A program made the translations under genes and the position numbers. Under the pieces are notes generated by a model that searched no databases, was not told the DNA's origin, and saw only the letters and a program-made list of their open reading frames with translations. A stretch of 64,000 nt of DNA from Candidatus Forterrea multitransposorum CG_2015-17_Forterrea_25_41 (GTDB lineage: Archaea > Iainarchaeota > Iainarchaeia > Iainarchaeales > CSSED10-239): contig CP045477.1 in NCBI GenBank assembly GCA_009392915.1, positions 704,001 through 768,000 of the forward strand, given 5' to 3'. Each line of letters opens with the position of its first letter. Position 1 is the first letter of the stretch. Below are positions 3,930 to 46,840 of this stretch, in pieces.

Positions 3930-5051
3930 ATGGATATAATAAATAAAAACTTAGAAAGTTATTTTAGTCTTGCAAATCAATTAAAGGAAGCGTTTAATAA
4001 TAAAAAATATGCCTTTATTAAATCAGTTTATATTCATGGTTCTTTTGCAAGAGGAGAAATTACTCCTAAAGAAAGTGATATTAACTTAATGATTTTTACT
4101 AAGAAAAAAGAAATTTTAGAAAAAGAAATTGAAACTATCTATAATATTAAACAAAAAATTGAAAGTAATTATTCAATAAAAATAGAATTTAAAATAAATA
4201 ATATTGAGAAAAATAGTCTTAAAAACATTACAACAGATATGTTCTATCCTTATCTTTATGATTTTATATTAAATAGCTTTTATATCTACGGAGAAAGAAT
4301 AGAAGACAAATTATTAAAAATTTTAAAAAATAAAACCTATTTTGAATTTTCATTTGAAACTACAAGTGTTTTTTCAAAAATAAGAATTGATTTTTTAGAA
4401 AATTATTTTAAAGAAAATAAATATAGAATGTACCATAATCTTTACAAATATTCAAGACTTTTAAAACAATTAAAAGTAAATGAAGAAGATATAGAAAAAT
4501 TAGTTTTAAAAATAACAGATTATAAAAATATAGATAAAGAAGAAATATTAAAATACATACTTAAATTTGAAGAACTTCTTGAAAAAGCAGATCTTAAAGA
4601 AATATATGAAAATAATAAAAAATTAAAATTATTTTTAGGATATGCAAAAGGAAGTTTAATCTATAATACTAAAACTAAAAAACTATTAATCCTTAGAGAA
4701 GATAGAAACATCTGTTCTTTTTGGTCAAAATCAGAAAAACAAGTAAAAAATAAAATTACTTTAAAAGATATCAAAAAAGATATTAAAGATAATTGTGGAA
4801 TTGATAAAATAACAATTGTTAAAAACAAAATAGGGGAATGTCATAATTGGTATGAAAAAGAAGACAATAGCTTTAAGAAAATACACACAGAATACTATTA
4901 TGCAACCACAGATTCTCCTGAAATGCCAATAAAAGATAATTGTTATGCATGGATTAAATTAAATGAAATTCAAAAATATATTTCTTCTCCTTGTCTTGGA
5001 TATATTGCAAAAGCATTCTATGAAGATTATATTAAAAAATTAGAAAAATAA
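3930..5051 (+). CDS. Nucleotidyltransferase-domain protein (pol-beta/MNT-like fold) with unknown C-terminal domain
   Basis: HGSFARGEITPKESDINLMIF matches the G[SG]-x9-13-[DE]h[DE]h minimal nucleotidyltransferase motif. 373 aa. Confidence 0.55.
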   Translation: MDIINKNLESYFSLANQLKEAFNNKKYAFIKSVYIHGSFARGEITPKESDINLMIFTKKKEILEKEIETIYNIKQKIESNYSIKIEFKINNIEKNSLKNITTDMFYPYLYDFILNSFYIYGERIEDKLLKILKNKTYFEFSFETTSVFSKIRIDFLENYFKENKYRMYHNLYKYSRLLKQLKVNEEDIEKLVLKITDYKNIDKEEILKYILKFEELLEKADLKEIYENNKKLKLFLGYAKGSLIYNTKTKKLLILREDRNICSFWSKSEKQVKNKITLKDIKKDIKDNCGIDKITIVKNKIGECHNWYEKEDNSFKKIHTEYYYATTDSPEMPIKDNCYAWIKLNEIQKYISSPCLGYIAKAFYEDYIKKLEK

Positions 5052-5063
5052 AAAATGTACGTA

Positions 5064-5099
5064 AAAATGTAAGAAATCACTAATTTTTCTTACATTTTT
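5064..5099. terminator. Perfect 14-bp inverted repeat between convergent genes (candidate bidirectional terminator)
   Basis: AAAAATGTAAGAAA (5064-5077), an 8-nt loop, then TTTCTTACATTTTT (5086-5099). It lies 13 nt after the stop of the + gene and before the 3' end of the - gene at 5140. Confidence 0.45.
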
Positions 5100-5139
5100 T
5101 AGAAAGAAAACAACCAGTCAAAAATAACAAAAGAGACCA

Positions 5140-5322
5140 TTATTTAGATTTTTTTAAATGAGGAAATTTATCTAAAAATTCTTTTTCAGAATACATTTTT
5201 AATTTGTTTTTTTTAATATCTGAAAGTTCTTTTTTAATTGCTTTTCCAACTTTATATAATTCTTCCTTATCTATAACAAAATTAAAAGAATATTTCTTTT
5301 TTAAAAAACTTTCTTTATTCAT
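5140..5322 (-). CDS. Small lysine-rich hypothetical protein
   Basis: 60-aa ORF only. Confidence 0.2.
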   Translation of the reverse strand: MNKESFLKKKYSFNFVIDKEELYKVGKAIKKELSDIKKNKLKMYSEKEFLDKFPHLKKSK

Positions 5323-5437: not shown

Positions 5438-7750
5438 ATGAAGATAGGAAACTACACTGTTGGAGACCATGTAGTTACAACTGAAGGTAATAAGAAAAAA
5501 TTAGTTTTTGATTGTAGAAATTGTCCTTATAATACATCAATTGCAGAAGACCCTAGATGTAGGTTTCATGCAATGAAAGTTTTAGAAACTGTTGATGCTG
5601 ATGAAATAATCTTAGCTGAAGTTTATGAAAGAAACTATAATGAAGAACAAACTAAATATTTAAAAGAAATGGTAAACCTACTTTTAGAATTTGAAAATAG
5701 AGCTGTCTGGGTATCACAACATCTTGGAATAAAGGATATTGATTGTGATGAATGTTATCCTGAAAGACATAATAATATTATTAAATTTGCAAGAGAACTT
5801 TTAGCATATGATCCTATAGCCTCATATATTAGTCTTTTAAAAGAAATAGAAAATACAAAAAACAGAGGAAATGAAAGAAAAGGACAACCATGTGAACCAT
5901 GTTTTGTTGCAAATGTTAAACATTTATCAAAATTAAAAGAAATGTTTGAAAAAACAGATTTTATAAGAAAAATAAAACCTTTATTATTAAAAATAAAAGA
6001 TTTATCTGAAGTTACAGACATCTATAGAACAATTTTTGAAGTTGAAATTAAACCTGCATTTATTGGTTCAAAATTAACTTTTAAAGACATGGATACTTTA
6101 GAACTTCTAGATGAATATCAAGTATTAAACACAACAGTTCAAATTTTTAAACATCCAGAAAAAGTTGAAAACATTTATTTAATTAATCCTCCTGAATATA
6201 CCTTATCACCAGATCATTATTTTGTTTTAACTAAAACAAAAGAAACTGTTGCAAACTATAAACCAGGAAAAGTAACTTTAACAACTGGAGAGTCTACAAG
6301 AAAATATTTCCAAAGAATATATCAATCAACAATTATTGATATTGCAAAAAAATATAATATTGAACTTTCACCTGATGATGTTTATTCACTTTCAGAAATT
6401 GTTACAAGATACACTATTGGATATGGGGTTTTAGAATTATTATTATCAGATAAACAAGTTACAGATGTTTATCTAGATTCACCATTAGGTGCAAAACCAA
6501 TATATTTAGTGCATTCAAAATATGGACAATGTCAAACAAATGTACATTATCCAGAAAAAGATGCAGAAAGCTTTGTTGGAAAAATAAGAGCAATGTCTGG
6601 AAGACCATTTGATGATGCACACCCTGTCTTAGACTTTGATATGCCAGACTTAAATACCAGAATTGCAGTTATTGGAAGACCTCTTGCAACAGATGGTATA
6701 GCTTTTGCTTTTAGGTTACATAAAGATACTCCATGGACTTTACCACAACTTATAAATGTTAAATCCTTAAATCCTTTAGCTGCTGGAATGTTAAGTTTCT
6801 TTATTGATAATAACTCAACTCTTTTAGTTGCAGGATCTCGTGGTGCAGGAAAAACTTCACTTATGACAGCTTTAATGCTTGAAATTTTACAAAATGCAAG
6901 AATTATTGTGCAAGAAGACACTTTAGAGCTTCCTATAACTTATATGAAAGATATTGGTTTTAATGCTCAAAGATTAAAAACAAGATCTGCAATTGGAGGA
7001 TCAGGAGATCAATCTAATGCAGAAGTAAAACCTGAAGATGCTTTAAGAACAGCCTTAAGATTAGGTGATTCTGCTTTAATTGTTGGAGAAGTAAGATCAG
7101 TTGAAGCAAAAGTACTGTATGAAGCCATGAGAGTTGGTGCTGCAGGGAACGTTGTTATGGGAACTATTCACGCAGACTCAGCTTATGCTGTATGGGATAG
7201 AGTAGTTAATGATTTAGGAGTGCCTACCACTTCATTTAAAGCAACAGACATTATTGTTGTTGCAAAGCCAATTAGGTTTAAAGGTTCTCTTAAAAGTTAT
7301 AGAAGAGTTGTACAGATAACAGAAGTTAGAAAACATTGGAATGATGATCCTGAAGCTGAAGGTGGAATTTTAAATTTAATGGAATATGATGCTTCTAAAG
7401 ATACTTTAGTTTTAAACGAAGATGCTTTAAAAGATTCTGAAATCTTTTCAAAAATATCTAAACTTACAGGTATGACAATTGAAGAGATTTGGGATAATAT
7501 TACTTTAAGATCAAAAGAAAAGAAATTCCAAGTAGAATTTGCAAATGAAAAAGGAGTAATTGAACTTTTGGAAGCTGAACATACTGTTTTTGTGCATAAT
7601 AAACTACTTATTACAAAAGAAGACTATTTAGAAGAACATGGAAAAACAGATTATGATCAAGTCTTTGAGCTTTGGAAGAAATGGTATATAGAAAAGTTTG
7701 CTCCAAGGATGATGAAGAGAATAATTGAGAATAGAAAAAGTGAAGAATAG
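5438..7750 (+). CDS. GspE/VirB11/FlaI-family secretion ATPase with a Cys-rich N-terminal extension (orphan, no adjacent platform gene)
   Basis: Walker A VAGSRGAGKTSLMTAL and Asp box IIVQEDTLEL. N-terminus has CRNCPYNT...CRFH, CDEC and CEPC clusters. 770 aa. Confidence 0.7.
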   Translation: MKIGNYTVGDHVVTTEGNKKKLVFDCRNCPYNTSIAEDPRCRFHAMKVLETVDADEIILAEVYERNYNEEQTKYLKEMVNLLLEFENRAVWVSQHLGIKDIDCDECYPERHNNIIKFARELLAYDPIASYISLLKEIENTKNRGNERKGQPCEPCFVANVKHLSKLKEMFEKTDFIRKIKPLLLKIKDLSEVTDIYRTIFEVEIKPAFIGSKLTFKDMDTLELLDEYQVLNTTVQIFKHPEKVENIYLINPPEYTLSPDHYFVLTKTKETVANYKPGKVTLTTGESTRKYFQRIYQSTIIDIAKKYNIELSPDDVYSLSEIVTRYTIGYGVLELLLSDKQVTDVYLDSPLGAKPIYLVHSKYGQCQTNVHYPEKDAESFVGKIRAMSGRPFDDAHPVLDFDMPDLNTRIAVIGRPLATDGIAFAFRLHKDTPWTLPQLINVKSLNPLAAGMLSFFIDNNSTLLVAGSRGAGKTSLMTALMLEILQNARIIVQEDTLELPITYMKDIGFNAQRLKTRSAIGGSGDQSNAEVKPEDALRTALRLGDSALIVGEVRSVEAKVLYEAMRVGAAGNVVMGTIHADSAYAVWDRVVNDLGVPTTSFKATDIIVVAKPIRFKGSLKSYRRVVQITEVRKHWNDDPEAEGGILNLMEYDASKDTLVLNEDALKDSEIFSKISKLTGMTIEEIWDNITLRSKEKKFQVEFANEKGVIELLEAEHTVFVHNKLLITKEDYLEEHGKTDYDQVFELWKKWYIEKFAPRMMKRIIENRKSEE

Positions 7751-7770
7751 TTTTTTCCTCTTCACTTTAA

Positions 7771-8091
7771 ATGTTTAAGTTACTTTTTTTAACATCTTTT
7801 AAAAAATATAATACAGACATAAACATATTTAAAATAATTGGAACTAATATATTGATGGTTGAAAGAATATTTAAAAAAATGAAGAGTATGGAAACTAAAT
7901 TTAAAAAAGCAATAGAGCTTCTTGAAAAAACAAATGCTACTTTATCTGAAGGAGCAAAACTTTCAGGGCTTAACTACAGAGATTTTTATGAAAAGGTCAT
8001 AGAAAGTAAGGTATTATCAAAGACAGAGATCAATAAAAGAGAAATAGATGTTAAAGAAATTGATGATGTTTTAAAAAAAATAAAAGTTTAA
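7771..8091 (+). CDS. Small putative HTH DNA-binding protein (Fis/HTH_8-like)
   Basis: KAIELLEKTNATLSEGAKLSGLNYRDFYEKV resembles Fis-type helix-turn-helix. The real start may be the internal ATG at 7879 (MKSMETKF...). Confidence 0.3.
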   Translation: MFKLLFLTSFKKYNTDINIFKIIGTNILMVERIFKKMKSMETKFKKAIELLEKTNATLSEGAKLSGLNYRDFYEKVIESKVLSKTEINKREIDVKEIDDVLKKIKV

Positions 8092-8109: not shown

Positions 8110-9456
8110 TTATAAAAAATATCTTGGAACCTCTAACAAACTTAAAAAGATACAAGCAGGAATAACTAACCTATTTTCTACAAAAACATCTCCAGGGGGC
8201 AAAACTGATTTAGATAATATTAAATAGTCTTTAACAAAATTAACATTATTTGGTTTTATTAAAGTATTTCTATATTTTACTTCTACTGCTTTTTTAAAAA
8301 CAATAAAATCAATTTCTTTTTTATCAACATTAAAATAAGATAAATCTAAATTATATAGATTATGTAAATGACTTGCAACAATGTTTTCAACTATAACACC
8401 TAATTTTTGTTCATTAAATAACAATTCTTTACTTTGAGCAAAATAATCTATATTTTTATAAAAATTTGTAATTGCATGTATTATAAAAGGATCTTTTACA
8501 TAAAATTTTTTAAGAATAGAAGATTGATTTTCTTTAACTTCAAAAACAACTAATAGCTCTGACAAAGTATTTAAGTAACTTTTAATAACATCTTGAGAAT
8601 AACCTGTTTTTTGTTGAATTGTAGAATATTTAATTTGGTTTGATAAAGAATCTATTAAAACTCTTAAAATTGCAATAGATTTTTGTTTATCTATTTTTTC
8701 AAATATTTTTTCTACAATATCTTCATAATATTTTTCAGATATATGATTTTTTTCAAAAAAAGAATTTATTGTTTCTGGAAAACCACCAGTTAATAAATAA
8801 TTATAGAAATATTTATTAATTTCTTCAAAATAATTTTCTAATAATTTATATTTCTCATAAATTAAAGTATTATCTTCACTTAGATTTATATGGTTATTTA
8901 ATATTACATCATGTAGTTTTAGGTTTTCTTTTTTTAATATAGTTAAAATATATTGTCTAAAAGTTAATGGGCCCATAATATTTTTTTTTTCAGACCTTCC
9001 AATTAGATATTGCCTACAAGCATCTATTGCTCTTGGATCAGAACCAGTAACAAATACACAAACATCTTTTAATAAATTTAAATCTTTTAAAGATTTTAAA
9101 AATAAACAACCTTCTTTTAAAGACTGAATTTCATCTAATAAAATTATTTTTTTATTATTTATTTTAATATCATGTTCTATAGTTTTTATTAATTCACTAG
9201 ATCTTATATTTAAAAGAGTGTCAAAATTAATGTAAGTAGAAGTATTTGGGTTATCTTGAGCAATTTTTTTTAAAAAAATAGTTTTTCCAACTCTTCTAGG
9301 GCCCTTTATTAAGTATATTTTGTTAGGAGCTATCTCTAATTGCTTTCTTTCGATGGAATATCTATTATTTTTTATTTTGGTAATCTCTAAGTCTTCTTTT
9401 CCTTGCCACCAAGGATTTTGTAAAATTATGTTTTTCCAATCAAGCATATATATCAT
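8110..9456 (-). CDS. Archaeal AAA+ ATPase (COG1373/DUF4143-type)
   Basis: Walker A LIKGPRRVGKTIF and Walker B ILLDEIQ. The domain organisation is typical of the archaeal 'predicted ATPase' family. Confidence 0.65.
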   Translation of the reverse strand: MIYMLDWKNIILQNPWWQGKEDLEITKIKNNRYSIERKQLEIAPNKIYLIKGPRRVGKTIFLKKIAQDNPNTSTYINFDTLLNIRSSELIKTIEHDIKINNKKIILLDEIQSLKEGCLFLKSLKDLNLLKDVCVFVTGSDPRAIDACRQYLIGRSEKKNIMGPLTFRQYILTILKKENLKLHDVILNNHINLSEDNTLIYEKYKLLENYFEEINKYFYNYLLTGGFPETINSFFEKNHISEKYYEDIVEKIFEKIDKQKSIAILRVLIDSLSNQIKYSTIQQKTGYSQDVIKSYLNTLSELLVVFEVKENQSSILKKFYVKDPFIIHAITNFYKNIDYFAQSKELLFNEQKLGVIVENIVASHLHNLYNLDLSYFNVDKKEIDFIVFKKAVEVKYRNTLIKPNNVNFVKDYLILSKSVLPPGDVFVENRLVIPACIFLSLLEVPRYFL

Positions 9457-25653: not shown

Positions 25654-28600
25654 TTAAACAGGGATTTGTACTCTTACAATTACAACTCCAGAACCACCTG
25701 AAAGACCTCTTGTACCACTACCAGAAGCTTTTCCATCCCCACCATTACCAGTATTTGGAGCACCTGCAGAACCACTATTTTCACGAGAATTACCTCCTGC
25801 AGCATAAATTACATTTGATCCAGTTATGTCATTTGAGGTACCAGGTCCTCCTACACCATATCCAGGAGGAGATGCCCAACAACTACCAGAACCTCCAGAA
25901 CCAGTACCACCTCTATTTTGAGGAGGACAAGCATAATTTGTAGAAGATGATCCTCCAGAACCTCCAGATGCTATTGTTCCATTAAAGAAAGAATACCCAC
26001 CTGCAGTTCCTGCTGTATTATAAGATCCACCAGATCCACCAGATCCCACTACAACATCATAAGTGTCAGCAGAACTGGATACAAGTCCATAATATCTATA
26101 TTGGCCGGCATTTCCACCATTACCATTATAACCACCACCACCACCACCACCGCCGACGACTAAGTATTCTAACATATACATTGGGAAGTCTATATTTATA
26201 GTGTAAGTTCCAGTACCACTTCTAAATTTATGAACACGGTATGCATAACCTCCTGAAATTCCCTCGGTTACTGTTGCTGTACCTGTGTGAGTAGTAATTA
26301 TTTTTCTAACCTTTAAAGTGTAGGTTGCAGAGGTTGCACCTTGTGTAACATTAACAGTAATTGTTTTTAAATTACCATCAGAAATGCTTATAGGGCTTGA
26401 TGCTGATCCAGATGAAACAGTTGAACCATTTACAGTTATTGTTCCAGTACCAGTAGGAGTTACAGTAATACTGTTAGTTGTACTAATTAAATAAAAAATA
26501 TCATTATAATTATATGTATTTGAATTAAAAGCAAATCCAGAAGGATTATTACTTAATTCTAAATTTGAAAGACCAGCAGGAATTGTTACGTTTATACTGC
26601 TTTGACTTCCCCAACAACCGTTTGTAGATCTTGCTCTAAAATAATAGGTGCCATTAGAATTTACTGTTTGAGGAGTGCCTCCTAAAGAGGTACTAGTACC
26701 CATTGATGTAGTTCCTTGGAAATATATAGTTCCACCTGAACCACCAGTTGCAGAAATGGTTGCAAACCCAGGACCACTATTTTGAAGAGATATACTTACA
26801 CTTCCTGGTTGAGAAAGTATAGTTGCAGTAACTGGAACTCTTGTTGTTAAATTACAAGTTCCGCCTGTCACTCCTACATAATAAGTTGTTGTCCAATTTA
26901 GAAGTGGAGTTGTAAAACTATTTCCTGTTGCAATTGGAGAACCACCAGTTGATGAAGTATACCATTCAATAGTTCCGCTTGTTGTAGTTGCACCTAAAGT
27001 TACAGAACCATTACCACATCTTTCTCCAGGAGTAACATTTACTGTTGGTGGAGATGCAATAGTCACTGTTTTTGAAACACAACTTGTTGTATTACAAGTA
27101 CCTGAAAGTCTTGCATAATAAGTTGTAGTTGAGGTTGGACTTACAGTTAAACTTGAAGAAGATCCTAATGAAATTGCAGTCCCACAAGTTCCAGCATACC
27201 ATTGATATGTAGCACCAGTTCCAACAGTTCCACCTATTGCAGTTAAAGTAGTTGGAGATCCAGAACATACACTTGTATTTCCAGTAATTGAGGTTGGAGC
27301 AACTGAAGGTGTATTAAATGAAACAGTTGCACTTCCTTGAGTACCCCAAGTACCAGAAGTAGATCTTGCTCTAAAATAATAAGTTCCAGGACTTGAAACA
27401 ACTTCTGATGTTGAAGCATTCATTGTACTGGTACCATTAGAAGTTGTGCCTTGATAATAAATTGTTCCATTAGCACCACCAGTTGCAGTTAAAGTTGCAT
27501 TAGCATTACAAGTTGCCCCACCACCTAAAACAGTTACTGGATCAGGAGTTATATCTACATTATAATAACCTTGAACTAAATCACTTGAAGTCCATCCTGT
27601 TTTATAAGCAATTGCTTTTAATGGAGTTGGAGAGTTAATTAAAACACTTTCTCCATGATTAATAACATTTACTCCACCTTGAACAGGTGTAGAGTTGTCT
27701 AAAGTATAACTGATTTGTGCTCCAGGCACAGAAGTAATAACTACATTTTGTGCAGTTGAATAAGTTCCAGGTAAAGGACTAAAGGTTGGTGAATTTAGTT
27801 TAAAAGTATAATCTGCTTGAGAAACAGAACTTTCAAGATAACCAGACTTGTAAACTATTGCTTTTAAAGTTTGATTTCTGGTTACAGGGATTGAAGTTCC
27901 GAGATATTGAGTTGAACTTGATGTTGGAGTATCACCATTGGTTGTGTAATAAATACTATAAGGAAGAGGAGTTGTAGTTGATAGATCTACAAAAATATTA
28001 TTATTGTATGTTCCTGAAGGACTTGAGAAAGTAGCAGGATTTGCAATTAATTGAACAGTGAAAGTTTGTGTGGCAACAGGACTGGTTGAATAACCAAAAG
28101 CATAACAAACTGCTTTTAAAGTTGTAGTGGATGTAAAATTAATTGGAGAAGAATAAACTGTTCCATCATCTCTTGTTGGATCAGTTCCATCAGTTGTATA
28201 TCTTATGGTGCTTGAAGGTGTGGAACAACTTAAAGTAACATTAACACTATTTGTGTGGGTTCCACCGTTTGGTGAAAAGGTAGGAGTTGCAGCAGGAGCA
28301 TTTATAGTGTAAACACCAGTTGAAACATCACTTGAAGTCCAACCTGTTTTGTAAGTGATTGCACGTAAAGTAGAGGTTGAAGTGATTGGAACAGTTGACT
28401 CTCCACTATTGATTTGTGTACCAGTTGTCTGTGTTGGAGTTGCTCCATTTATAGTGTATCTGATTTGGGCACCAGCAACAGAAGTTATTGCTACAGATTG
28501 AGAATCTGAATATGCACCAGGAGAAGGACTAAAGGTTGGTGCATTTAATTTGAAGACATAATCTGCTTGAGTGACAGAACTTGCAAGATAACCAGGCTTA

Positions 28601-30858
28601 TAAACAATTGCTTTTAAAGTTTGATTTCTGGTTACAGGGATTGAAGTTCCGAGATATTGAGTTGAACTTGAAGTTGGAGTATCTCCATTTGTTGTATAAT
28701 AAATACTATAAGGAAGAGGAGTTGTGGTTGATAGGTCGACAAAAATATTATTATTGTATGTTCCTGAAGGACTTGAGAAAGTAGCAGGACTTGCAATTAA
28801 TTGAACAGTGAAAGTTTGTGTAGCAACAGGACTGGTTGAATAACCAGAAGCATAACAAACTGCTTTTAAAGTTGTAGTGGATGTAAAATTAATTGGAGAA
28901 GAATAAACTGTTCCATCCTCTCTTGTTGGATCAGTTCCATCAGTTGTATATCTTATGGTGCTTGAAGGGGTTGTACAACTTAAAGTTACATTAACACTAT
29001 TTGTAAAAGTACCACCGTTTGGACTAAAGGCAGGAGTTGCAGCAGGAGCATTAATAGTATAAACACCAGTTGAAACATCACTTGAAGTCCAACCTGTTTT
29101 GTAAGTGATTGCACGTAAAGTAGAGGTTGAAGTGATTGGAACAGTTGACTCTCCACTATTGATTTGTGTACCAGTTGTCTGTGTTGGAGTTGCTCCATTT
29201 ATAGTGTATCTGATTTGGGCACCAGCAACAGAAGTTATTGCTACAGATTGAGAATCTGAATATGCACCAGGAGAAGGACTAAAGGTTGGTGCATTTAATT
29301 TGAAGACATAATCTGCTTGAGTGACAGAACTTGCAAGATAACCAGGCTTATAAACAATTGCTTTTAAAGTTTGATTTCTGGTTACAGGGATTGAAGTTCC
29401 GAGATATTGAGTTGAACTTGAAGTTGGAGTATCTCCATTTGTTGTATAATAAATACTATAAGGAAGAGGAGTTGTAGTTGATAAATCAACAAAAATATTA
29501 TTATTATAAGTTCCTGAAGGAAGAGAAAAGATTGCAATATTAGCAGGAAGAGTAACATTATAATCTGCTTGAGATATTGGACCGGTATTTGAACCTACAG
29601 CTGCCATTGCCTTAATAGTTACAGGAGATGATATGTTAATTGGACTTGAATAAACTGGACTTAAAAGAGTAGGATCAAAACCACTTGTGGTATAATGAAT
29701 AGTTGCACCAGGATTTGAATTACTTAAAGTAATATTTTGTATTGTAGAATAATCTCCTGCAGGAGGATTAAAAATAATAGGATCTAAAGGTACAAAGAAA
29801 CTATAAGTAAAAGTTGAAACTGAACTATCATTATAATTTTCTCTACAAGCAATTGCTTTTATGGTAGAGTCTGCAGAAACATTTATTGGAGAAGTATATT
29901 CTGAAAAGCTACCTGAACAATCAGGAATAGAAGAATCTAAAGTATAATAAATAGTTGAAGAAGAGGTTGCACTTGAAAGAACAACATTAATTGGATCTTC
30001 TAAATTTATAGAACTATCAGGAGTTGCAGTTACTGAAGATACAGTATCATAAGAAACTGTGTAAGTTCCAGAAGCAATTCCAGATTTAACACTGTTATAT
30101 TCAGAATATGCCATAATAGTTGTTCCAGGACTAATTGAAATAGGAAGCCCTAAAGTATAAGGTATACCGCTAGTATAAGGATCACTACCATCTATTGTAT
30201 AATAAACAGAAAAACTTGGATCAGATACATCTAAAGTTATAGTTGATGGAAAAGAAAAATAATTATAAGAACCAGGAACAGGATTAAATAATGGTCTTGA
30301 AATCACTGTTGTTTTAGGACCACTATCAGACCAATTAAAAGAATATCTAGAAGATTTTTTGGATTGATTATTTTTTGAAACTTCTATAGATAAATAATAA
30401 GAATCTCCACAAGAACCATTACCTAAATCAATATCTGAAACAATTAAATTATTTGTAATAATTGGATTTAAGTTATCTTCGGGAATAATATTCCCATCTA
30501 AAATAACAGTGTAATCTCCCTCATTTAAAACATCATTATCTTTATTTTCAATAATTAATTTATAAGTACCCTCTCTCGATAAAGGTTTCCAAGAAAAAGA
30601 TAAAAGCCCAATTTTTCTTAAAGTTCCACCTACATCAATAGTTTCACAATCTAAATAATTAGCTTTAACAGAAGTTATTGTTGGAGGTAAAGGACCATCA
30701 GTTGAAGAAGAAACATCATCAACTTGTTCTGATGCTGAATCTCTTGATTGACCACCTAGAGAAACTAAAATAGTTACAATAATTACAGCAACTAATACAC
30801 CACCACCAATCAATATTAAAGTTTCTAAATTACCTTGACCTTTTTTTGATGGTAGCAT
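25654..30858 (-). CDS. Giant (1734 aa) pilin-signal adhesin-like protein: class III signal plus pilin domain, chitobiase-C-type repeats (tandemly duplicated), Ig-like repeats and a Gly-rich C-terminus
   Basis: N-terminus MLPSKKGQGNLETLILIGGGVLVAVII...GGQSRDSA...CGDSYYLSIEVSKNNQ is homologous to the 43929 pilin. Repeats carry IRYTTDGTDPT motifs. Ig-like repeats carry C..G..TLTA.GG...YQWY...TYYAR..G.C. The tail has GGGGGGGG and further Gly-rich segments. Confidence 0.6.
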   Translation of the reverse strand: MLPSKKGQGNLETLILIGGGVLVAVIIVTILVSLGGQSRDSASEQVDDVSSSTDGPLPPTITSVKANYLDCETIDVGGTLRKIGLLSFSWKPLSREGTYKLIIENKDNDVLNEGDYTVILDGNIIPEDNLNPIITNNLIVSDIDLGNGSCGDSYYLSIEVSKNNQSKKSSRYSFNWSDSGPKTTVISRPLFNPVPGSYNYFSFPSTITLDVSDPSFSVYYTIDGSDPYTSGIPYTLGLPISISPGTTIMAYSEYNSVKSGIASGTYTVSYDTVSSVTATPDSSINLEDPINVVLSSATSSSTIYYTLDSSIPDCSGSFSEYTSPINVSADSTIKAIACRENYNDSSVSTFTYSFFVPLDPIIFNPPAGDYSTIQNITLSNSNPGATIHYTTSGFDPTLLSPVYSSPINISSPVTIKAMAAVGSNTGPISQADYNVTLPANIAIFSLPSGTYNNNIFVDLSTTTPLPYSIYYTTNGDTPTSSSTQYLGTSIPVTRNQTLKAIVYKPGYLASSVTQADYVFKLNAPTFSPSPGAYSDSQSVAITSVAGAQIRYTINGATPTQTTGTQINSGESTVPITSTSTLRAITYKTGWTSSDVSTGVYTINAPAATPAFSPNGGTFTNSVNVTLSCTTPSSTIRYTTDGTDPTREDGTVYSSPINFTSTTTLKAVCYASGYSTSPVATQTFTVQLIASPATFSSPSGTYNNNIFVDLSTTTPLPYSIYYTTNGDTPTSSSTQYLGTSIPVTRNQTLKAIVYKPGYLASSVTQADYVFKLNAPTFSPSPGAYSDSQSVAITSVAGAQIRYTINGATPTQTTGTQINSGESTVPITSTSTLRAITYKTGWTSSDVSTGVYTINAPAATPTFSPNGGTHTNSVNVTLSCSTPSSTIRYTTDGTDPTRDDGTVYSSPINFTSTTTLKAVCYAFGYSTSPVATQTFTVQLIANPATFSSPSGTYNNNIFVDLSTTTPLPYSIYYTTNGDTPTSSSTQYLGTSIPVTRNQTLKAIVYKSGYLESSVSQADYTFKLNSPTFSPLPGTYSTAQNVVITSVPGAQISYTLDNSTPVQGGVNVINHGESVLINSPTPLKAIAYKTGWTSSDLVQGYYNVDITPDPVTVLGGGATCNANATLTATGGANGTIYYQGTTSNGTSTMNASTSEVVSSPGTYYFRARSTSGTWGTQGSATVSFNTPSVAPTSITGNTSVCSGSPTTLTAIGGTVGTGATYQWYAGTCGTAISLGSSSSLTVSPTSTTTYYARLSGTCNTTSCVSKTVTIASPPTVNVTPGERCGNGSVTLGATTTSGTIEWYTSSTGGSPIATGNSFTTPLLNWTTTYYVGVTGGTCNLTTRVPVTATILSQPGSVSISLQNSGPGFATISATGGSGGTIYFQGTTSMGTSTSLGGTPQTVNSNGTYYFRARSTNGCWGSQSSINVTIPAGLSNLELSNNPSGFAFNSNTYNYNDIFYLISTTNSITVTPTGTGTITVNGSTVSSGSASSPISISDGNLKTITVNVTQGATSATYTLKVRKIITTHTGTATVTEGISGGYAYRVHKFRSGTGTYTINIDFPMYMLEYLVVGGGGGGGGYNGNGGNAGQYRYYGLVSSSADTYDVVVGSGGSGGSYNTAGTAGGYSFFNGTIASGGSGGSSSTNYACPPQNRGGTGSGGSGSCWASPPGYGVGGPGTSNDITGSNVIYAAGGNSRENSGSAGAPNTGNGGDGKASGSGTRGLSGGSGVVIVRVQIPV
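27571..29820 (-). repeat. Tandem 750-bp (250-aa) in-frame coding repeats, about 2.3 units near-identical at the DNA level, inside the giant adhesin gene
   Basis: tgaaacatcacttgaagtccaacctgtttt recurs at 28321 and 29071. Hundreds of bp are identical between 27790-28560, 28321-29070 and 29071-29530. Confidence 0.7.
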
Positions 30859-40281: not shown

Positions 40282-40647
40282 TTAATCCTCAAATTTATAT
40301 AATATTATTTCTGGTTTGTTTTGATAAAGTGTATATTTACCAGTTATTTTTATTTCTTTTTTAAAAGAAAATGCATTTTGTAGTAAATCAACATTAGTTT
40401 TTGATGGATTAAAATAAACCACATCTATGCATGAAGAAAGATTACATATTTTAAAAAACAAATTATTGTTTTCAAGAGAAAAATCTTTTAAATTTCCTGA
40501 AACTAACACTACTTGTTCCAAAAGAGAAGAATCTGGTGATAAGAGGTCTAAAATAGGTGCTTTAAAAAAAAGAGTGCAAAAAAGAAAAATTAAAAGTGAG
40601 ATTATAATTGTTAAAATTAAAAATAAATTTAATTTTTTTTCATCCAT
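40282..40647 (-). CDS. N-terminally anchored hypothetical protein in the pilus locus
   Basis: 121 aa. One TM segment, then a soluble domain. Start/stop abut the neighbouring genes. Confidence 0.35.
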   Translation of the reverse strand: MDEKKLNLFLILTIIISLLIFLFCTLFFKAPILDLLSPDSSLLEQVVLVSGNLKDFSLENNNLFFKICNLSSCIDVVYFNPSKTNVDLLQNAFSFKKEIKITGKYTLYQNKPEIILYKFED

Positions 40648-40651
40648 ACTT

Positions 40652-41143
40652 TTATTTAATAATTTTTTTTATTTTTACAGGTTTTTTATTTACAAAAAAT
40701 TTAGATAATTCAATTAAAATTACAGTGCCTTCTTTTAAAGGTTTTGAATATTTTAAAGAAAATTCTTTATTTAAATTAAAGAAAGGATCTTTAATTTTAA
40801 AATAAACTTCTTTAGAAGTGCTTTTTGTAACAACTCCATAAGTTATGTTAAATAATACTTTAAATAAATATAAATAAAGTACAACAAGACACATAAAGAC
40901 TAATAAAAAATAAATATGTGTGATATATTGAGAAATAATAAACATCCCTAAAATAGATGTAAACCCAATACCTACATAATTATATTTTGCTTTAATTAAC
41001 TTATAATTACCAATTTCTTTAATGTAGAATAAAAAAGTTAAAAGCATTAATAGTATTTTTAAAAATAAATTACCAGGAACAATTAAATTCACAATAATTG
41101 AAAATAAAAAAATAATCTCTAAATAAATAATATGCTTATCCAT
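40652..41143 (-). CDS. Membrane protein (4 TM plus soluble C-terminus) in the pilus locus
   Basis: 163 aa. Confidence 0.35.
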   Translation of the reverse strand: MDKHIIYLEIIFLFSIIVNLIVPGNLFLKILLMLLTFLFYIKEIGNYKLIKAKYNYVGIGFTSILGMFIISQYITHIYFLLVFMCLVVLYLYLFKVLFNITYGVVTKSTSKEVYFKIKDPFFNLNKEFSLKYSKPLKEGTVILIELSKFFVNKKPVKIKKIIK

Positions 41144-41159
41144 AATTTAATTTCACCTA

Positions 41160-41522
41160 TTAAATACATTCTAAACTAATACTAATATTATCAAACTTTG
41201 TTCTATCTAACAAACCATTAGTTAGTGTTGTGTAATTATAATCATCAGGAACTATTGGACAATTAGTTTCAAGTCCTTTATTTAAATAAACAATCATATC
41301 TAAGTTATCATTATCAAATACATAATTAATAGTGTTAATTGAATAAGAATGATTATATCCAGCGATATATTTTAATGTTAAATTTTTTGTTTTATGCATA
41401 GCAATATTAATATCAAAAGTTGATGTTAAAGTTGCAACTACAGTTATAGCTATAACCATTACAATTAAAAGAATAATTAAAAACTCTAAACTAGTTTGAG
41501 CTTTTTTATCTTGAAGCAACAT
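41160..41522 (-). CDS. Minor pilin (class III signal)
   Basis: MLLQDKKAQTSLEFLIILLIVMVIAI: A|QTSLEF. Confidence 0.55.
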   Translation of the reverse strand: MLLQDKKAQTSLEFLIILLIVMVIAITVVATLTSTFDINIAMHKTKNLTLKYIAGYNHSYSINTINYVFDNDNLDMIVYLNKGLETNCPIVPDDYNYTTLTNGLLDRTKFDNISISLECI

Positions 41523-41982
41523 CTATATCTCCAGCAATAGTTTTTTCAACAACTAAATAATTATTAAACCCTGGTCCAACTTCATCACAAGTAAAATCTA
41601 CATCTCCAATAGATACTAATTTTTCAAAAGTACAGATGTTTGTAGTAGAATCACATGCAGAGATATTAGGTTTAGGATTTTGAGAAGAAATTGATATTTG
41701 GTATTCAATAATGTTTGTTGCAGAATCACAGTTTATAATTTTTGCATTATCAGGAAGATAAAAATAAACTAATCTTTTACCATATCCAGGAGAACTTGCA
41801 AAAGATGCTAAATCATCTCCAAGTTTATCAATAGATTGTTTTGTTTGAGTAATATTATAAATATCACCTACAATATTTTCTGAAAAAACAATATTTGGAT
41901 ATATGATTGCTTGAAAAAATAATAATAAAATAGATATTAAAATAATGTATTCAATTGCAATTTGTCCTTTTATATTTTTCAT
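41506..41982 (-). CDS. Minor pilin (class III signal)
   Basis: MKNIKGQIAIEYIILISILLLFF: G|QIAIEY. Confidence 0.55.
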   Translation of the reverse strand: MKNIKGQIAIEYIILISILLLFFQAIIYPNIVFSENIVGDIYNITQTKQSIDKLGDDLASFASSPGYGKRLVYFYLPDNAKIINCDSATNIIEYQISISSQNPKPNISACDSTTNICTFEKLVSIGDVDFTCDEVGPGFNNYLVVEKTIAGDIDVASR

Positions 41983-42013
41983 TTAAAATTCCTTCCTTTT
42001 ATATTATTTAAGC

Positions 42014-43135
42014 TTAAAAAATAAACCAAATAAAATCTCCAAAAATATTTAATAAAATATACGCTATTAACACAGAAGGGGTAAATGGAATTGTTTTTTT
42101 TAAAACTATCTCCTTCTCTAAATTATGTTTATATGAACTCTTTAAAAAGGTTATGTCTTCAGGTAAAAGACCCCCTATTTTCCTAGAATCTATGATTAGT
42201 TTATTTGATTTTTGTTTAGAGGTATATTCTTTTAAATAATCAATAAAGGATATTTTTTTTTCAATAACTTTTTTATTTGATAAATAATAATTATTTAAAA
42301 CAACATCTCCTTCTTTTAAATCATTTATTTTTTTACTAAAAGTTAATATCTTTGAAGAAATTATTTTATAAAAAGTTATACTTAAGAAAATAATAATAAT
42401 AGTTATAGTAATTATTAATAAATCATAGAAAACAAATATTCTTTTTGAATAAAACAAAGAATATCCAATTAATAATAAATAAAGCCCTAAAACTAAATAA
42501 TTATAGTGAAGAATATTTTGTTTTTCAATTTTTCTAAAAAACAAGATAAACATTATAGATAATAAAAAATAAATTAAAAAAGGGATATACATTTCAAAAA
42601 TATTAAAAAAAGAAGAAATTAAGAAAAGTATTAAAATAGAACTTACTAAAGAAAATAATGTGTTTTTTGTTTTTAATAAATTTATAAGTATTCTATAGTG
42701 TCTTTTAAATATAAATAAATAAATAGAACTAATTAAGAGAATAGGTGCTGTAGAAAGAATAGCAGTTAGTATTAAAGTCAAAGAAAATACAGGGATTGTT
42801 ATTATTTTAAAAGAAAATAAAAAGCCTAAAAAATTAATATTAAAAGGATTTAAGAAAGAAATTGCAGAAAACAACTTTAAATCACCACCTGCAAAGAAAC
42901 CAAACTCCCAAAGAACATACCCTACAATAAAGGTTATACCAAAAGATAAAAAAGCATTAAGAAGAATAGATATTTTTGAGAAATAAATTGTTTCTATTAT
43001 TTTAAAAATAACTCCAATAATTAATAAATATAATACTAAAAAATTTGGAACAATTCTTTTTTTAATATCATAATAACTTGCAAATAATAAAAATATCAAA
43101 GTTATTGAAAATGCAAAAAAAGGAAAGTTAAACAT
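42014..43135 (-). CDS. Prepilin peptidase (A24 family, PibD/FlaK/TadV-like) with an about 130-aa C-terminal extension
   Basis: Asp23 in SYYDIKKRIVPN. Second Asp in FFAGGDLKLF (GxGD-type). Multi-TM. 373 aa versus the typical ~250. Confidence 0.6.
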   Translation of the reverse strand: MFNFPFFAFSITLIFLLFASYYDIKKRIVPNFLVLYLLIIGVIFKIIETIYFSKISILLNAFLSFGITFIVGYVLWEFGFFAGGDLKLFSAISFLNPFNINFLGFLFSFKIITIPVFSLTLILTAILSTAPILLISSIYLFIFKRHYRILINLLKTKNTLFSLVSSILILFLISSFFNIFEMYIPFLIYFLLSIMFILFFRKIEKQNILHYNYLVLGLYLLLIGYSLFYSKRIFVFYDLLIITITIIIIFLSITFYKIISSKILTFSKKINDLKEGDVVLNNYYLSNKKVIEKKISFIDYLKEYTSKQKSNKLIIDSRKIGGLLPEDITFLKSSYKHNLEKEIVLKKTIPFTPSVLIAYILLNIFGDFIWFIF

Positions 43136-43160
43136 ACATTATTTTCTCAACAAAAATTAT

Positions 43161-43349
43161 TTATAAAGAAGCTAAAATATTATCTCTATAAGTTAATATT
43201 TTAGATTTTGCAACAGTTATAAAACTATTTAAATTTAATATAACAATACCTGTTGTAATTACTAAAATCATACCAAAAACAATCATGATTAGATATTCAA
43301 TAGAGACTTGACCTCTTTGGTCATTTAAAAGTAAATTTAATCTATTCAT
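43161..43349 (-). CDS. Flp-size pilin (62 aa)
   Basis: NDQRGQVSIEYLIMIVFGMILVI: G|QVSIEY. Confidence 0.55.
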   Translation of the reverse strand: MNRLNLLLNDQRGQVSIEYLIMIVFGMILVITTGIVILNLNSFITVAKSKILTYRDNILASL

Positions 43350-43372
43350 AATATATAATCACTAAATCTTAA

Positions 43373-43840
43373 TTACCTTGCAACACATGAAGATGCAGGA
43401 GTTGATGGTCTTGAATGAACATTATTTTTAACAGTTATAACTGATACTTCATACTCTGTTCCAACTGAATCTACAGATAAATCACTTGCAGGAACCTGTA
43501 AAATACTAGTGCCTTCTTGAACATATAACACATCTGTTCCTGATGGATAAGGATCATTATTATCTATTTTTATTCTATAACCTGTATTTGGAGCTGAAGA
43601 TACTAAATTAATAGTTACATTTCCACTTGCAACACAATCAACACTTGTAACAATTGGTGGAACTAAAGTATTATCTAAAATAGTTGTAATAGCTTCATCT
43701 TGCTGCAAAGCAGCTTCTCTATTAGAAGCATTCATATTAGTTATTAAAATAATCACAGAAATTGCAATAATTATAGTAGCACCAATCAAAAGCAAATATT
43801 CCATTGCTCCTTGTCCTTTTTGTTTTTTTAAAAATGTCAT
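43373..43840 (-). CDS. Pilin with C-terminal beta domain
   Basis: KKQKGQGAMEYLLLIGATIIIAI: G|QGAMEY. Confidence 0.6.
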   Translation of the reverse strand: MTFLKKQKGQGAMEYLLLIGATIIIAISVIILITNMNASNREAALQQDEAITTILDNTLVPPIVTSVDCVASGNVTINLVSSAPNTGYRIKIDNNDPYPSGTDVLYVQEGTSILQVPASDLSVDSVGTEYEVSVITVKNNVHSRPSTPASSCVAR

Positions 43841-43880
43841 AAATTACCATCTTTCTTTTAAAAATAAAAAAATAAAATAA

Positions 43881-43909
43881 AGTTGATTTTTTTTAAAAAA
43901 AAAAATCAA
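43881..43909. terminator. Hairpin GTTGAT8-A11TCAAC between the first long pilin gene and the downstream pilins (candidate attenuator/terminator)
   Basis: GTTGATTTTTTTT...AAAAAAAATCAAC lies 20 nt after the stop of 43929..44447. It shares the GTTGATTT/AAATCAAC core with 22572-22600. Confidence 0.5.
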
Positions 43910-43928
43910 CCTATTTTTAATTAACTAC

Positions 43929-44447
43929 TTAATCAACCCAACTAAATCTATAACCTTGAGATGTTACTGTTTGGTTATTCTTTGTTGTTTTAATATATAA
44001 GTAGTAAGAGTCACCACATTTGTTACCACTATTTAAAGTTAAATCCACATTTAAACCGTTAACTTCATTTGGATTTAAATCTGTTTCATCAATTGTCTCT
44101 AAACCAGAATTATCTGTTAATGAATCTATTGTTAATTCATTATTACTTGAATCCATGATATATAACTCGTGACTTCCACCTTCACCTAATGGTCTCCAAG
44201 AGAAATTTAAGTCAGCAGTTAATGCAGTTGAATCACATGCATCATATGCAGCAACAACTTGTACAATTTGTGATGGTTGAGGAACGTCTGTTGCTTGATT
44301 TGCTTTTTCAGCTTGAGCAGCAGCAGAGTCTCTTGATTGTCCACCCATACCTACAAGTAATGCAATAACAATAACAGCAATTAATACTGCACCACCAATT
44401 AAAAGAAGATACTCAAGAGCACCTTGTCCTTTAAATTTTTTATTCAT
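43929..44447 (-). CDS. Pilin (172 aa) with conserved C-terminal CGDSYYLYI..KNNQ..SQGY.F.W domain
   Basis: MNKKFKGQGALEYLLLIGGAVLIAVIVIALLV: G|QGALEY. Confidence 0.65.
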   Translation of the reverse strand: MNKKFKGQGALEYLLLIGGAVLIAVIVIALLVGMGGQSRDSAAAQAEKANQATDVPQPSQIVQVVAAYDACDSTALTADLNFSWRPLGEGGSHELYIMDSSNNELTIDSLTDNSGLETIDETDLNPNEVNGLNVDLTLNSGNKCGDSYYLYIKTTKNNQTVTSQGYRFSWVD

Positions 44448-44579
44448 TTTTAAACACCTTTTTTATATTTTTTAAACATCACACATAAAGTGTATAACTA
44501 ATAACTTGTACTAGTTAAATTAATTAAAATATTACATACAATATATTTATATATGTTTCTTTTCAATATTTCAAACCAA

Positions 44580-44753
44580 TTAACTATTATTAACTATTGA
44601 TTGATAGTCAGTTGCAGTCTTAACATTCTTTGCAGAAGTTTGTTTTACAAAAATTCCAACAGTTAATGCAACTAATATAACAACTCCAGTAATAATTATA
44701 AACTCTAAAGAAACCTGTCCTTTATTATCTTTTATTAATCTTCTTAATTTCAT
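44580..44753 (-). CDS. Short Flp-type pilin, 57 aa (not in ORF track; candidate major pilin)
   Basis: Reverse-strand ORF: ATG at 44751-44753, stop at 44580-44582. MKLRRLIKDNKGQVSLEFIIITGVVILVALTVGIFVKQTSAKNVKTATDYQSIVNNS. G|QVSLEF motif. Confidence 0.55.
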   Translation of the reverse strand: MKLRRLIKDNKGQVSLEFIIITGVVILVALTVGIFVKQTSAKNVKTATDYQSIVNNS

Positions 44754-44755
44754 AT

Positions 44756-45652: not shown

Positions 45653-45658
45653 ATTAAA

Positions 45659-46804: not shown

Positions 46805-46840
46805 TAAAATCTTTTTTTTAATTTATTTTAAATATATATA

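Follow-up and report, generated by a model that had tools for sequence, protein, structure and literature searches.

What does a secretion ATPase drive when no other part of a secretion machine is encoded beside it? The question is raised by a gene for a 770-residue ATPase in the window, the whole 64-kb stretch of DNA analysed here. The original prediction described it as a second secretion-superfamily ATPase, distinct from that of a pilus locus in the same window, with no platform, pilin or peptidase gene adjoining it. Both statements hold: the two ATPases share 31% identity, and the ORF list and Pfam matches of the window show no such neighbour. The motifs AGSRGAGKTSL and QEDTLEL, noticed earlier, lie at residues 465–475 and within residues 489–498. 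The gene and its parts are as follows.

5438..7750, plus strand: 770-residue secretion-superfamily (FlaI/GspE/CpaF-like) ATPase, from the ORF, Pfam, PDB and homologues
5438..6316, plus strand: family-specific N-terminal region, residues 1 to approx. 293, from sequence comparison and a structure model
5510..5569, plus strand: site 1, putative zinc knuckle/zinc-ribbon-like, C26-x2-C29-x11-C41-x2-H44, from conservation and weak profile matches
5741..5902, plus strand: site 2, Cys tetrad C103-x2-C106 (CDEC) ... C152-x2-C155 (CEPC), specific to the window's clade
6830..7183, plus strand: catalytic core, from motif positions, its core residues invariant or near-invariant in the family
6830–6862, plus strand: Walker A, AGSRGAGKTSL, residues 465–475, sequence motif
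6902–6931, plus strand: Asp box, IIVQEDTLEL, residues 489–498, sequence motif
7073–7108, plus strand: Walker B, ALIVGEVRSVEA, residues 546–557, sequence motif
7157–7183, plus strand: His box, MGTIHADSA, residues 574–582, sequence motif

The ORF (5438..7750) is intact, and its four catalytic motifs are all present and largely invariant in an alignment of 20 sequences. The gene is real and under strong purifying selection, with dN/dS values of 0.05–0.16 in the N-terminal domain and core alike (four comparisons within the window's clade, dS 0.6–1.0). Residues approx. 295–710 form a secretion ATPase portion of the FlaI/afGspE/CpaF type; Pfam T2SSE (PF00437) matches residues 414–610 (62.7 bits against a cutoff of 24.9), and the best PDB matches are Archaeoglobus fulgidus GspE (afGspE; 2oap, E 2e-30), CpaF (2e-25) and FlaI (4e-23). 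The gene is ordinary in kind.

Assignments to the archaellum, VirB11, GspE and TadA families were rejected because each score falls far below the curated cutoff. The FlaI/ArlI equivalog model, although the top NCBIfam match, gave 157.4 bits against a cutoff of 550 (NF058587); VirB11/TrbB models gave 67 against 250 (TIGR02788) and 71 against 305 (TIGR02782), GspE/PilB models 23.4 against 630 (TIGR02533) and 23.0 against 676 (TIGR02538), and the TadA/CpaF model 126 against 373 (TIGR03819). The ATPase has the superfamily membership and two-domain core of FlaI/ArlI (PDB 4ii7), but no archaellum genes (ArlJ, ArlF/G, ArlH, archaellins/arlB) were found near it in the window or in the operons of its relatives. 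With bacterial TadA/CpaF (PDB 8rkd, 9e24) it shares similarity over residues 299–630, and these are likewise pilus assembly ATPases with a TadB/C-type platform, but the context here is archaeal and the N- and C-terminal domains differ. The closest solved relative, afGspE, aligns from residue 298 to 707 with chain residues 101–483, a span that takes in the region beyond the ATPase core on its C-terminal side; unlike afGspE, our protein carries approx. 200 extra N-terminal residues, with no similarity before residue approx. 295. We know of no defined function for afGspE itself. The earlier suggestions of a role in DNA uptake, in an archaellum or as a regulatory ATPase gain no support.

The N-terminal extension was put at approx. 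160 residues in the original prediction but spans approx. 290, since the PDB and NCBIfam matches begin at residue approx. 295; this family-specific domain has no relative in Pfam or the PDB. The structure model contains, in order, a β-hairpin with a Cys/His module, an α/β unit, a helical bundle and a β region; judged by pLDDT, residues 10–200 are predicted with confidence and the following β region with less. In site 1 the second ligand pair is C41-x2-H44, not C-x-H as first read, and the CxxC ... CxxH ligand spacing is found. In the model the CxxC follows the hairpin at residues 11–25, and C41 and H44 lie at the start of the helix at residues 39–49. The proposal of a Cys-rich, zinc-binding N-terminal module is plausible. 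Of 88 family members, 76 have the full CCCH set; the other 12 lack one to four ligands, most of them three or four at once, and still keep the operon described below. Site 1 is dispensable in these members. Residues 9–46 weakly resemble the Rpb9 zinc ribbon (Pfam E 0.0016; PDB 5x4z_I, E 0.075), but the score with the family model Zn_ribbon_RPB9 stays below significance (18.7 bits, cutoff 25.2). The CDEC and CEPC clusters are real, at 103/106 and 152/155, but only site 1 is family-wide: all four cysteines of site 2 occur in 17 of 17 sequences of the window's clade and in none of the 71 others, among which C103 and C155 covary, both being present in 33. The Cys-rich N-terminal region is conserved and is probably a zinc-binding domain common to the whole family. 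Bacterial GspE/PilB ATPases have a Cys4 metal site of structural role in the C-terminal CM motif of the ATPase domain. The likeness to this tetracysteine is that of a secretion ATPase with a Cys-based, here putative, metal site; both sites of the 770-residue protein lie in the N-terminal extension and the GspE models score only 23–24 bits, and the two arrangements are convergent rather than homologous.

Relatives of the ATPase occur in 230 species-level genomes, nearly all of them Iainarchaeota. Full-length homologues are 56–60% identical (approx. 57% across the phylum), the family is approx. 750–770 residues long, and some homologues contain inteins. The ATPase is the first gene of a nine-gene operon in most of these genomes and in all sampled outgroups, followed by a T2SSF-type platform protein of approx. 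780 residues and seven small proteins, five of which carry class III (pilin) signal peptides. Of the first 85 loci fetched, 53 have the platform gene directly downstream of the ATPase, as do the outgroup lineages L086 and L088–L091. Fourteen of 17 members of the platform family match Pfam T2SSF (best E 2.7e-6); the platform profile found no match in the PDB, and no invariant platform motif is long enough to serve as a DNA pattern. The pilin-like proteins carry conserved class III motifs (KGQAFSVFKLLIA, KGQE.APFELL, AQSEWNS.YMLI and GQAAITDALYFL), and the cognate genes of the relatives conserve [KR][GA]Q followed by a hydrophobic helix. A metagenome scan with one pilin motif (p181b) gave 73 matches, all 73 of them genuine operon fragments and none on a contig of the window's clade. 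The ATPase family has a well-defined partner set of its own, a T2SSF-type platform and seven pilin-like proteins, and the term 'orphan' fits the position of the gene in the window but not the family, whose partners are adjacent in those 53 loci and in all outgroups. We found no description in the literature of the N-terminal domain, the platform family or the seven pilin-like proteins.

By gene layout the system resembles System 2 of the type IV filaments (TFF), Makarova clade 2, which includes PilB3/PilC3 and PilB4 of Haloferax volcanii (PMC4858521; bioRxiv 10.64898/2026.04.22.720090). The relatives show the same extended ATPase N-terminus, a single platform directly downstream, multiple SPIII-type pilin-like genes and small membrane proteins, with parts possibly in trans. 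It differs in that the N-domain with its Cys3His module matches nothing in Pfam or the PDB, in that the Iainarchaeota platform is unusually long (approx. 780 residues) and matches T2SSF weakly, and in that here the ATPase itself, not just the pilins, has parted from the platform. ATPase and TadC genes are normally adjacent, which makes such a separation unusual.

A neighbour-joining (NJ) tree places the solitary ATPases in two monophyletic clades, and the ATPase has been separated from the operon twice, independently. In the second of these clades the platform P0434 and seven small genes lie at 85–107 kb on a 985 290-bp contig that also holds the ATPase, P0071, at approx. 224 kb. Since the module is on the same contig, approx. 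125 kb away, these genes were split rather than lost. It is probable that the window's ATPase powers a system encoded elsewhere. The trans arrangement in the second clade goes most of the way towards what the original prediction named as evidence against it, a characterised clade with a known partner set encoded elsewhere, although this clade is without experimental characterisation.

In the window's own clade the ATPase always stands alone between RPA and an S-layer gene. In the NJ tree the basal ATPase branch of this clade is long, and the gene has been retained in 17 of 17 sequences through deep diversification. Searches for cognate platform or pilin-like genes found none within ±10 kb in the 13 loci of this clade with enough flanking sequence, and none in the 64-kb window or in approx. 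20 loci of the clade (tblastn and profile HMMs). [quoted passage not shown] In the metagenome scan the p181b motif had no match on a 687 569-bp contig of the clade or on contigs that match in length the 660–840-kb contigs of this species, and none of these lengths occurs among the listed platform matches that were checked. The platform profile gave 920 matches among 1.8 billion representatives, and none of those listed (the best 120–150 per search) was tied to a genome of the window's clade. Amino-acid composition cannot discriminate between candidate platforms, since the membrane proteins of the window itself already span 0.34 to 0.50 FYMINK. Rfam and tRNA scans of the window gave no matches.

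The window does contain a complete pilus locus approx. 39 kb from the ATPase, as had been noted.

40282..48856, minus strand: separate complete type IV pilus locus, System-1-like, from Pfam and NCBIfam
46841..48856: pilus-locus ATPase, from Pfam and NCBIfam
42014..43135: Peptidase_A24 with Arc_PepC, from Pfam, a class III signal peptidase

Besides the ATPase and the A24 peptidase, this locus holds two T2SSF platform genes, pilins with class III signals and further small ORFs. Its ATPase is closer to FlaI (284 bits with the NCBIfam model, against 157 for the 770-residue protein), and the platform profile of the 770-residue family did not match its T2SSF proteins (hhalign probabilities 3% and 20%). 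The pilins of the window belong to this System-1-like locus, and no pilin-like gene with a class III signal assignable to the 770-residue ATPase was found in the 64 kb. The locus is not the cognate partner set of that ATPase.

We consider it reasonably probable that the ATPase is the motor of an Iainarchaeota type IV filament system, with its partners in the window's clade most likely encoded in trans. The protein would be the hexameric assembly ATPase of a distinct TFF system characteristic of the phylum, its ancestral state that of co-transcription with the approx. 780-residue T2SSF/TadC-type platform and the seven small proteins. The class III signal peptides on five of these lead us to expect cleavage by a prepilin peptidase and polymerization into a pilus-like filament or a pseudopilus. 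Powered by ATP hydrolysis in the C-terminal domain of the motor, the platform would pull pilin-like subunits from the membrane. These steps follow established knowledge of the type IV pilus and archaellum machines. The conserved N-terminal region of approx. 290 residues would be an adaptor particular to this system, by which the motor docks to its cognate platform or accessory proteins, in agreement with the subsystem-specific N-domains described for archaeal filament ATPases (bioRxiv 10.64898/2026.04.22.720090). Within it the Cys3His site would stabilize a small zinc-knuckle-like element, to which the second, Cys4 site of the window's clade probably adds stability. In that clade the ATPase, though uncoupled, most likely still serves a partner module in trans, which may be strongly diverged, given the long ATPase branch.

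A specific version of the trans-partner explanation identifies the diverged partner as the stand-alone platform family P0276/P0390 (L166/L168), which has 25.9% GC and no adjacent ATPase. The GC content is identical to that of the window, the stand-alone position is as expected of a trans partner, the proteins score 403 bits against the platform profile, and their deep isolated branch (at most 34% identity to other platform lineages) parallels the long ATPase branch. However, the tetranucleotide correlation with the window is 0.56–0.58, against 0.89–0.91 for true close relatives, the metagenome-assembled genome CAZNYH01 (GCA_964577235.1), which carries P0276, is not one of the genomes in which an ATPase of the window's clade was demonstrated, accession and NCBI locus-tag prefixes gave no link to the window, and no recognizable pilin-like genes adjoin the platforms; we regard this pairing as unlikely.

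About as doubtful is the proposal that the partner module has been lost from the window's clade and the ATPase re-wired to another membrane partner, for which the two-gene System-1 platform at 44.7–46.8 kb is one candidate, the 770-residue protein being its alternative or second motor. It would account for the lack of partner genes wherever the clade was searched, and the clade-specific Cys4 site and long basal branch would reflect adaptation. Selection on the ATPase is still strong, and archaeal ATPase/TadC modules are known to exchange pilin sets (Makarova 2016, PMC4858521). A selected ATPase would then work with a foreign platform or none, the Cys4 site would signal the switch of partner, and a secretion-superfamily motor would have escaped from its own machine. 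Yet the only solitary clade in which this could be tested retains the partners in trans, the N-domain, through which docking presumably occurs, is under the same constraint as in relatives with the operon, nothing connects the protein with the System-1 locus, where a separate ATPase is encoded, and the partner searches are incomplete, covering the best 120–150 platform matches.

Still less probable is a platform-independent role, in which the ATPase is a soluble hexamer with a regulatory or nucleic-acid- or protein-handling function and the zinc module binds DNA, RNA or protein. Its solitary position next to the replication gene RPA, the weak Rpb9 similarity of residues 9–46 and the inteins of some homologues, a feature often seen in information-processing proteins, are consistent with this. 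But in most lineages the same protein, N-domain included, is encoded in an operon with platform and pilin-like genes, the RPA neighbourhood is particular to one clade, the matches to zinc ribbons fall short of the threshold, and the zinc site has gone from 12 of 88 members that retain the operon. That the gene is a decaying remnant, a pseudogene-in-waiting left solitary and partnerless by loss of its system, is scarcely credible and was rejected because dN/dS is 0.05–0.16, with a 770-codon ORF intact, all catalytic motifs present and the gene kept in all 17 sequences of the clade.

For attachment to the host in DPANN archaea, type IV filaments are the leading candidates. The present analysis delineates a second TFF system whose conservation in Iainarchaeota is unusually high; a separate platform family belongs to it, together with seven conserved pilin-like proteins and a motor whose N-terminal domain is unique. 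The ATPase gene is separable from the platform gene, and co-localization-based tools would therefore miss or misclassify such systems; locus models of the MacSyFinder type would label a separated motor an 'orphan'. For the window the remaining issue is a narrow one, namely where, or whether, its clade encodes the partners of the ATPase.

The small ORF downstream of the ATPase, described earlier as 106 residues with a Fis-like HTH, does not belong to the system.

7879..8091, plus strand: remnant of approx. 70 residues, RHH and UPF0175-like (antitoxin-type), outside the system, from conservation and weak profile matches

As annotated from 7771 the ORF is over-called: only residues approx. 37–106 are conserved, and in L006, whose ATPase is 100% identical, a stop falls within the first 36 codons. 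The HTH is weakly supported (Foldseek best E 0.66, top matches HTH domains), and a Pfam search with the 106-residue sequence found nothing even at E ≤ 10. Longer homologues in L007 and L008 give weak matches to RHH_1 (E 0.0036) and UPF0175 (E 0.0035), the latter, in L007, below the cutoff. Its only recurrences are in the three closest genomes, +110, +738 and +1857 nt away from the ATPase, and for this lack of conservation it was rejected as a partner. It is a truncated, RHH/UPF0175-like remnant of antitoxin type in a variable island.

The secretion-superfamily ATPase lies in a window of about 26% GC, from a very AT-rich archaeon, where archaeal genes for replication and the cell surface are also present (RPA, RFC, CDC48, an S-layer protein and class III signal peptides). 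The features concerned are:

5438..7750, plus strand: secretion-superfamily ATPase, 770 aa (ORF call)
3930..5322 and 8110..9456: variable island, the gaps between the RPA gene, the ATPase gene and the S-layer gene

Similarity to the superfamily spans residues approximately 295−710, with a Pfam T2SSE match of 62.7 bits and PDB matches to afGspE (2oap, E 2e-30), CpaF (2e-25) and FlaI (4e-23). All four catalytic motifs (Walker A, Asp box, Walker B and His box) were found, and their core residues are conserved throughout the family alignment. The original prediction of a VirB11/GspE-family ATPase holds for the T2SSE superfamily, but not for either named family: the protein scored 67 bits for VirB11 and 23 bits for GspE, against NCBIfam equivalog cutoffs of 250 and 630. 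Assignments to FlaI (157 bits, cutoff 550) and TadA (126 bits, cutoff 373) were also rejected. Two family members from outside the window, P0119 and P0120, carry LAGLIDADG inteins (approx. 500−560 aa) inside Walker B, between SALIV and GEVRS (window residue 549/550, about nt 7084), which suggests that the ATPase matters enough for an intein to persist in it.

Full-length homologues of approximately 750−770 aa, with 56−60% identity, are abundant. Scanning one genome per GTDB species gave 230 genomes with a relative, and nearly all of them bear the label Iainarchaeota or Diapherotrites. The family alignment has a mean column identity of 68%, an unusually high value for surface machinery in DPANN archaea. 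The relatives' ATPase gene heads a same-strand operon, followed by genes for a polytopic membrane protein of approximately 780 aa and seven small proteins (145, 181, 62, 181, 220, 192 and 265 aa in locus L004). This membrane protein is the platform: 14 of 17 members of its family match Pfam T2SSF (best E 2.7e-6), and the annotation of several reads T2SS F family; profile comparison revealed only a remote relationship to the platform proteins of the window's own pilus locus. In five of the seven small proteins the N-terminus is conserved, with [KR]-[GA]-Q and a hydrophobic helix as is usual in class III (pilin) signal peptides, while the other two have conserved hydrophobic motifs there. The platform gene lies directly 3′ of the ATPase gene in 53 of the first 85 loci fetched and in all of the more distant lineages that were sampled (L086, L088, L089, L090 and L091), and all 73 metagenome matches to one pilin motif were fragments of the ATPase-platform-pilin operon. 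From this context we conclude that it is a genuine type IV filament subsystem not described before. Compared by layout alone, it is closest to ‘System 2’/Makarova clade 2 (extended N-terminal ATPase, single platform gene, multiple pilins). The literature searched, including general censuses of archaeal TFF systems (PMC4858521, PMC6393860, bioRxiv 10.64898/2026.04.22.720090), holds no description of the family, its N-domain or the split arrangement described below; we regard the subsystem as a modestly novel variant built around a kind of gene already known.

Giant surface proteins (roughly 2300−3000 aa), with hints of CarboxypepD_reg, SpaA or bMG3 domains, are encoded just upstream of some relatives' ATPase or operon (L003 1..7010, L004 1..7831, L090 1..2427). 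In L004, the same region holds an EpsH exosortase/archaeosortase-like gene and one for a 336-aa membrane protein. These genes hint at a larger cell-surface neighbourhood in the relatives.

A neighbour-joining tree of 88 family ATPases contained two monophyletic clades whose members are solitary, with no platform gene adjoining. The window's clade (at least 73% identity) sits on a long basal branch, and its ATPase gene stands alone between RPA upstream and the S-layer gene downstream, both on the minus strand, in all 13 loci with sufficient flank, the gaps holding variable cargo. The second clade (L003, L052, L067, L057, L033, L039 and L069) is nested among operon-linked relatives. Its partners were sought with a profile built from the sister group's platforms: on the 985 290 bp contig Ga0376277_0000017, platform P0434 and seven pilin-like genes lie at 85−107 kb and the solitary ATPase P0071 at about 224 kb. 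The operon of this clade is therefore split, not lost.

The earlier description of an orphan lacking platform and pilin partners fits the window, where no partner module was found next to the ATPase gene or within the 64 kb, but not most relatives, whose ATPases head a platform-pilin operon. A second set of platform genes, for which it proposed a genome-wide search, was found in trans in the second solitary clade but not in the window's: no window-clade platform was present among those platform matches listed that could be checked, and the pilin motif had no match on a 687 569 bp window-clade contig or on contigs sized as this species' 660−840 kb ones. Exact copies of window proteins were seen on some 40 public contigs of up to 839 632 bp, many of 660−692 kb, from several MAGs (locus tags GW835, GW840, GW796, GW776, GW820, GW806 and PHX47), so the genome of this species is essentially closed in public data.

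On balance, we favour the 770-aa protein as the assembly motor in a type IV filament system specific to Iainarchaeota, with its partners encoded in trans in the window's clade. It would drive filament assembly, the partner genes may be strongly diverged, and the N-domain could be a docking module that is specific to this system and stabilised by zinc. The main rival, that the partners were lost in this clade and the motor re-wired, would suit the null searches and has the split second clade as its counter-example; we think it rather doubtful. A platform-independent role would suit the solitary gene but not the platform adjacency of its relatives, and is unlikely. Decay of the gene is scarcely credible, as dN/dS against four window-clade members is 0.05−0.16 for N-domain and core alike (dS 0.6−1.0); the gene is clearly functional.

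Stand-alone platform homologues (650 and 607 aa) were also seen on AT-rich contigs of 25.9% and 34% GC (L166 8001..9953 and L168 7741..9693, both at 25.9% GC; L167 8001..9824). No ATPase lies within 8 kb of them, and none of their neighbours is recognisably pilin-like. They add to the examples of split systems; no tie between their lineage and the window was found.

The N-domain is confidently modelled over residues 10−200 (pLDDT 77−96) as a β-hairpin (11−25), a helix (39−49), two strands (56−67) and a helical bundle ending near residue 200, followed by a lower-confidence β region (204−250). Within the protein, conservation is lowest over residues 101−200. The Cys clusters of the N-domain had been proposed as zinc-binding modules. 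Of 88 members, 76 have CCCH at site 1 (C26, C29, C41, H44), a putative metal site. In the model the CxxC follows the hairpin with C41/H44 at a helix start, suggesting a knuckle followed by a helix, as is usual at zinc-knuckle or treble-clef sites. The 12 exceptions (L086, 3860..6118; L044, L051, L065, L071, L075, L080, L082−L084, L090 and L114) include Ca. Iainarchaeum andersonii. In most of them three or four ligands are missing at once, as would be expected for one metal site dispensable as a unit, and all 12 keep the N-domain and an adjoining platform, so the putative site is not essential for the system. The CDEC/CEPC tetrad, site 2 (C103, C106, C152, C155), is by contrast complete only in the window's clade (17 of 17 sequences, none elsewhere among the 88). 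C103 and C155 covary outside that clade (33 sequences have both), implying that they are close in space; C106 and C152 are window-clade additions turning a Cys pair into a putative Cys4 site.

The 106-aa ORF downstream had been described as having a Fis-like HTH. A single-sequence model has four helices, and the best Foldseek matches are indeed HTH domains, headed by the (Fis-type) DNA-binding domain of a sigma-54 activator, but no match reaches significance and there is none in Pfam. Only residues approximately 37−106 are conserved; L006, whose ATPase is 100% identical, has a stop within the first 36 codons, and longer versions in L007 and L008 weakly match RHH_1 and UPF0175. We read the ORF as a probable truncated antitoxin-type gene within the variable island. 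It was rejected as an ATPase partner because homologues occur in the three closest genomes only, at variable distances (+110, +738 and +1857 nt). Other island cargo comprises a 373-aa MntA-like nucleotidyltransferase (Polbeta/NTP_transf_2), a minus-strand 60-aa ORF common to the window, L006, L007 and L009, and an AAA_14/DUF4143 ATPase, patchy among relatives; the island may be a cargo region of toxin-antitoxin or defence genes.

The complete pilus locus 39 kb away encodes the more canonical of the window's two ATPases (FlaI model 284 bits), only 31% identical to the 770-aa protein. Its two platform genes, pilins and own A24 peptidase fit the ‘System 1’ (Epd-like) layout reported for methanogens and DPANN (bioRxiv 10.64898/2026.04.22.720090). 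Past the peptidase it continues with four more small ORFs of 158, 120, 163 and 121 aa (40282..43840). The 120-aa ORF (41160..41522) is UPF0333 family by JGI name; the 163-aa ORF marginally matches the HMM of p62, a small pilin-like protein of the relatives' operon (E 0.016), probably through the common signal-peptide region. The compositionally most unusual stretch of the window surrounds a minus-strand 1734-aa ORF (25654..30858), in a region of 35−36% GC against approximately 26% for the window, with GC skew up to +0.26.
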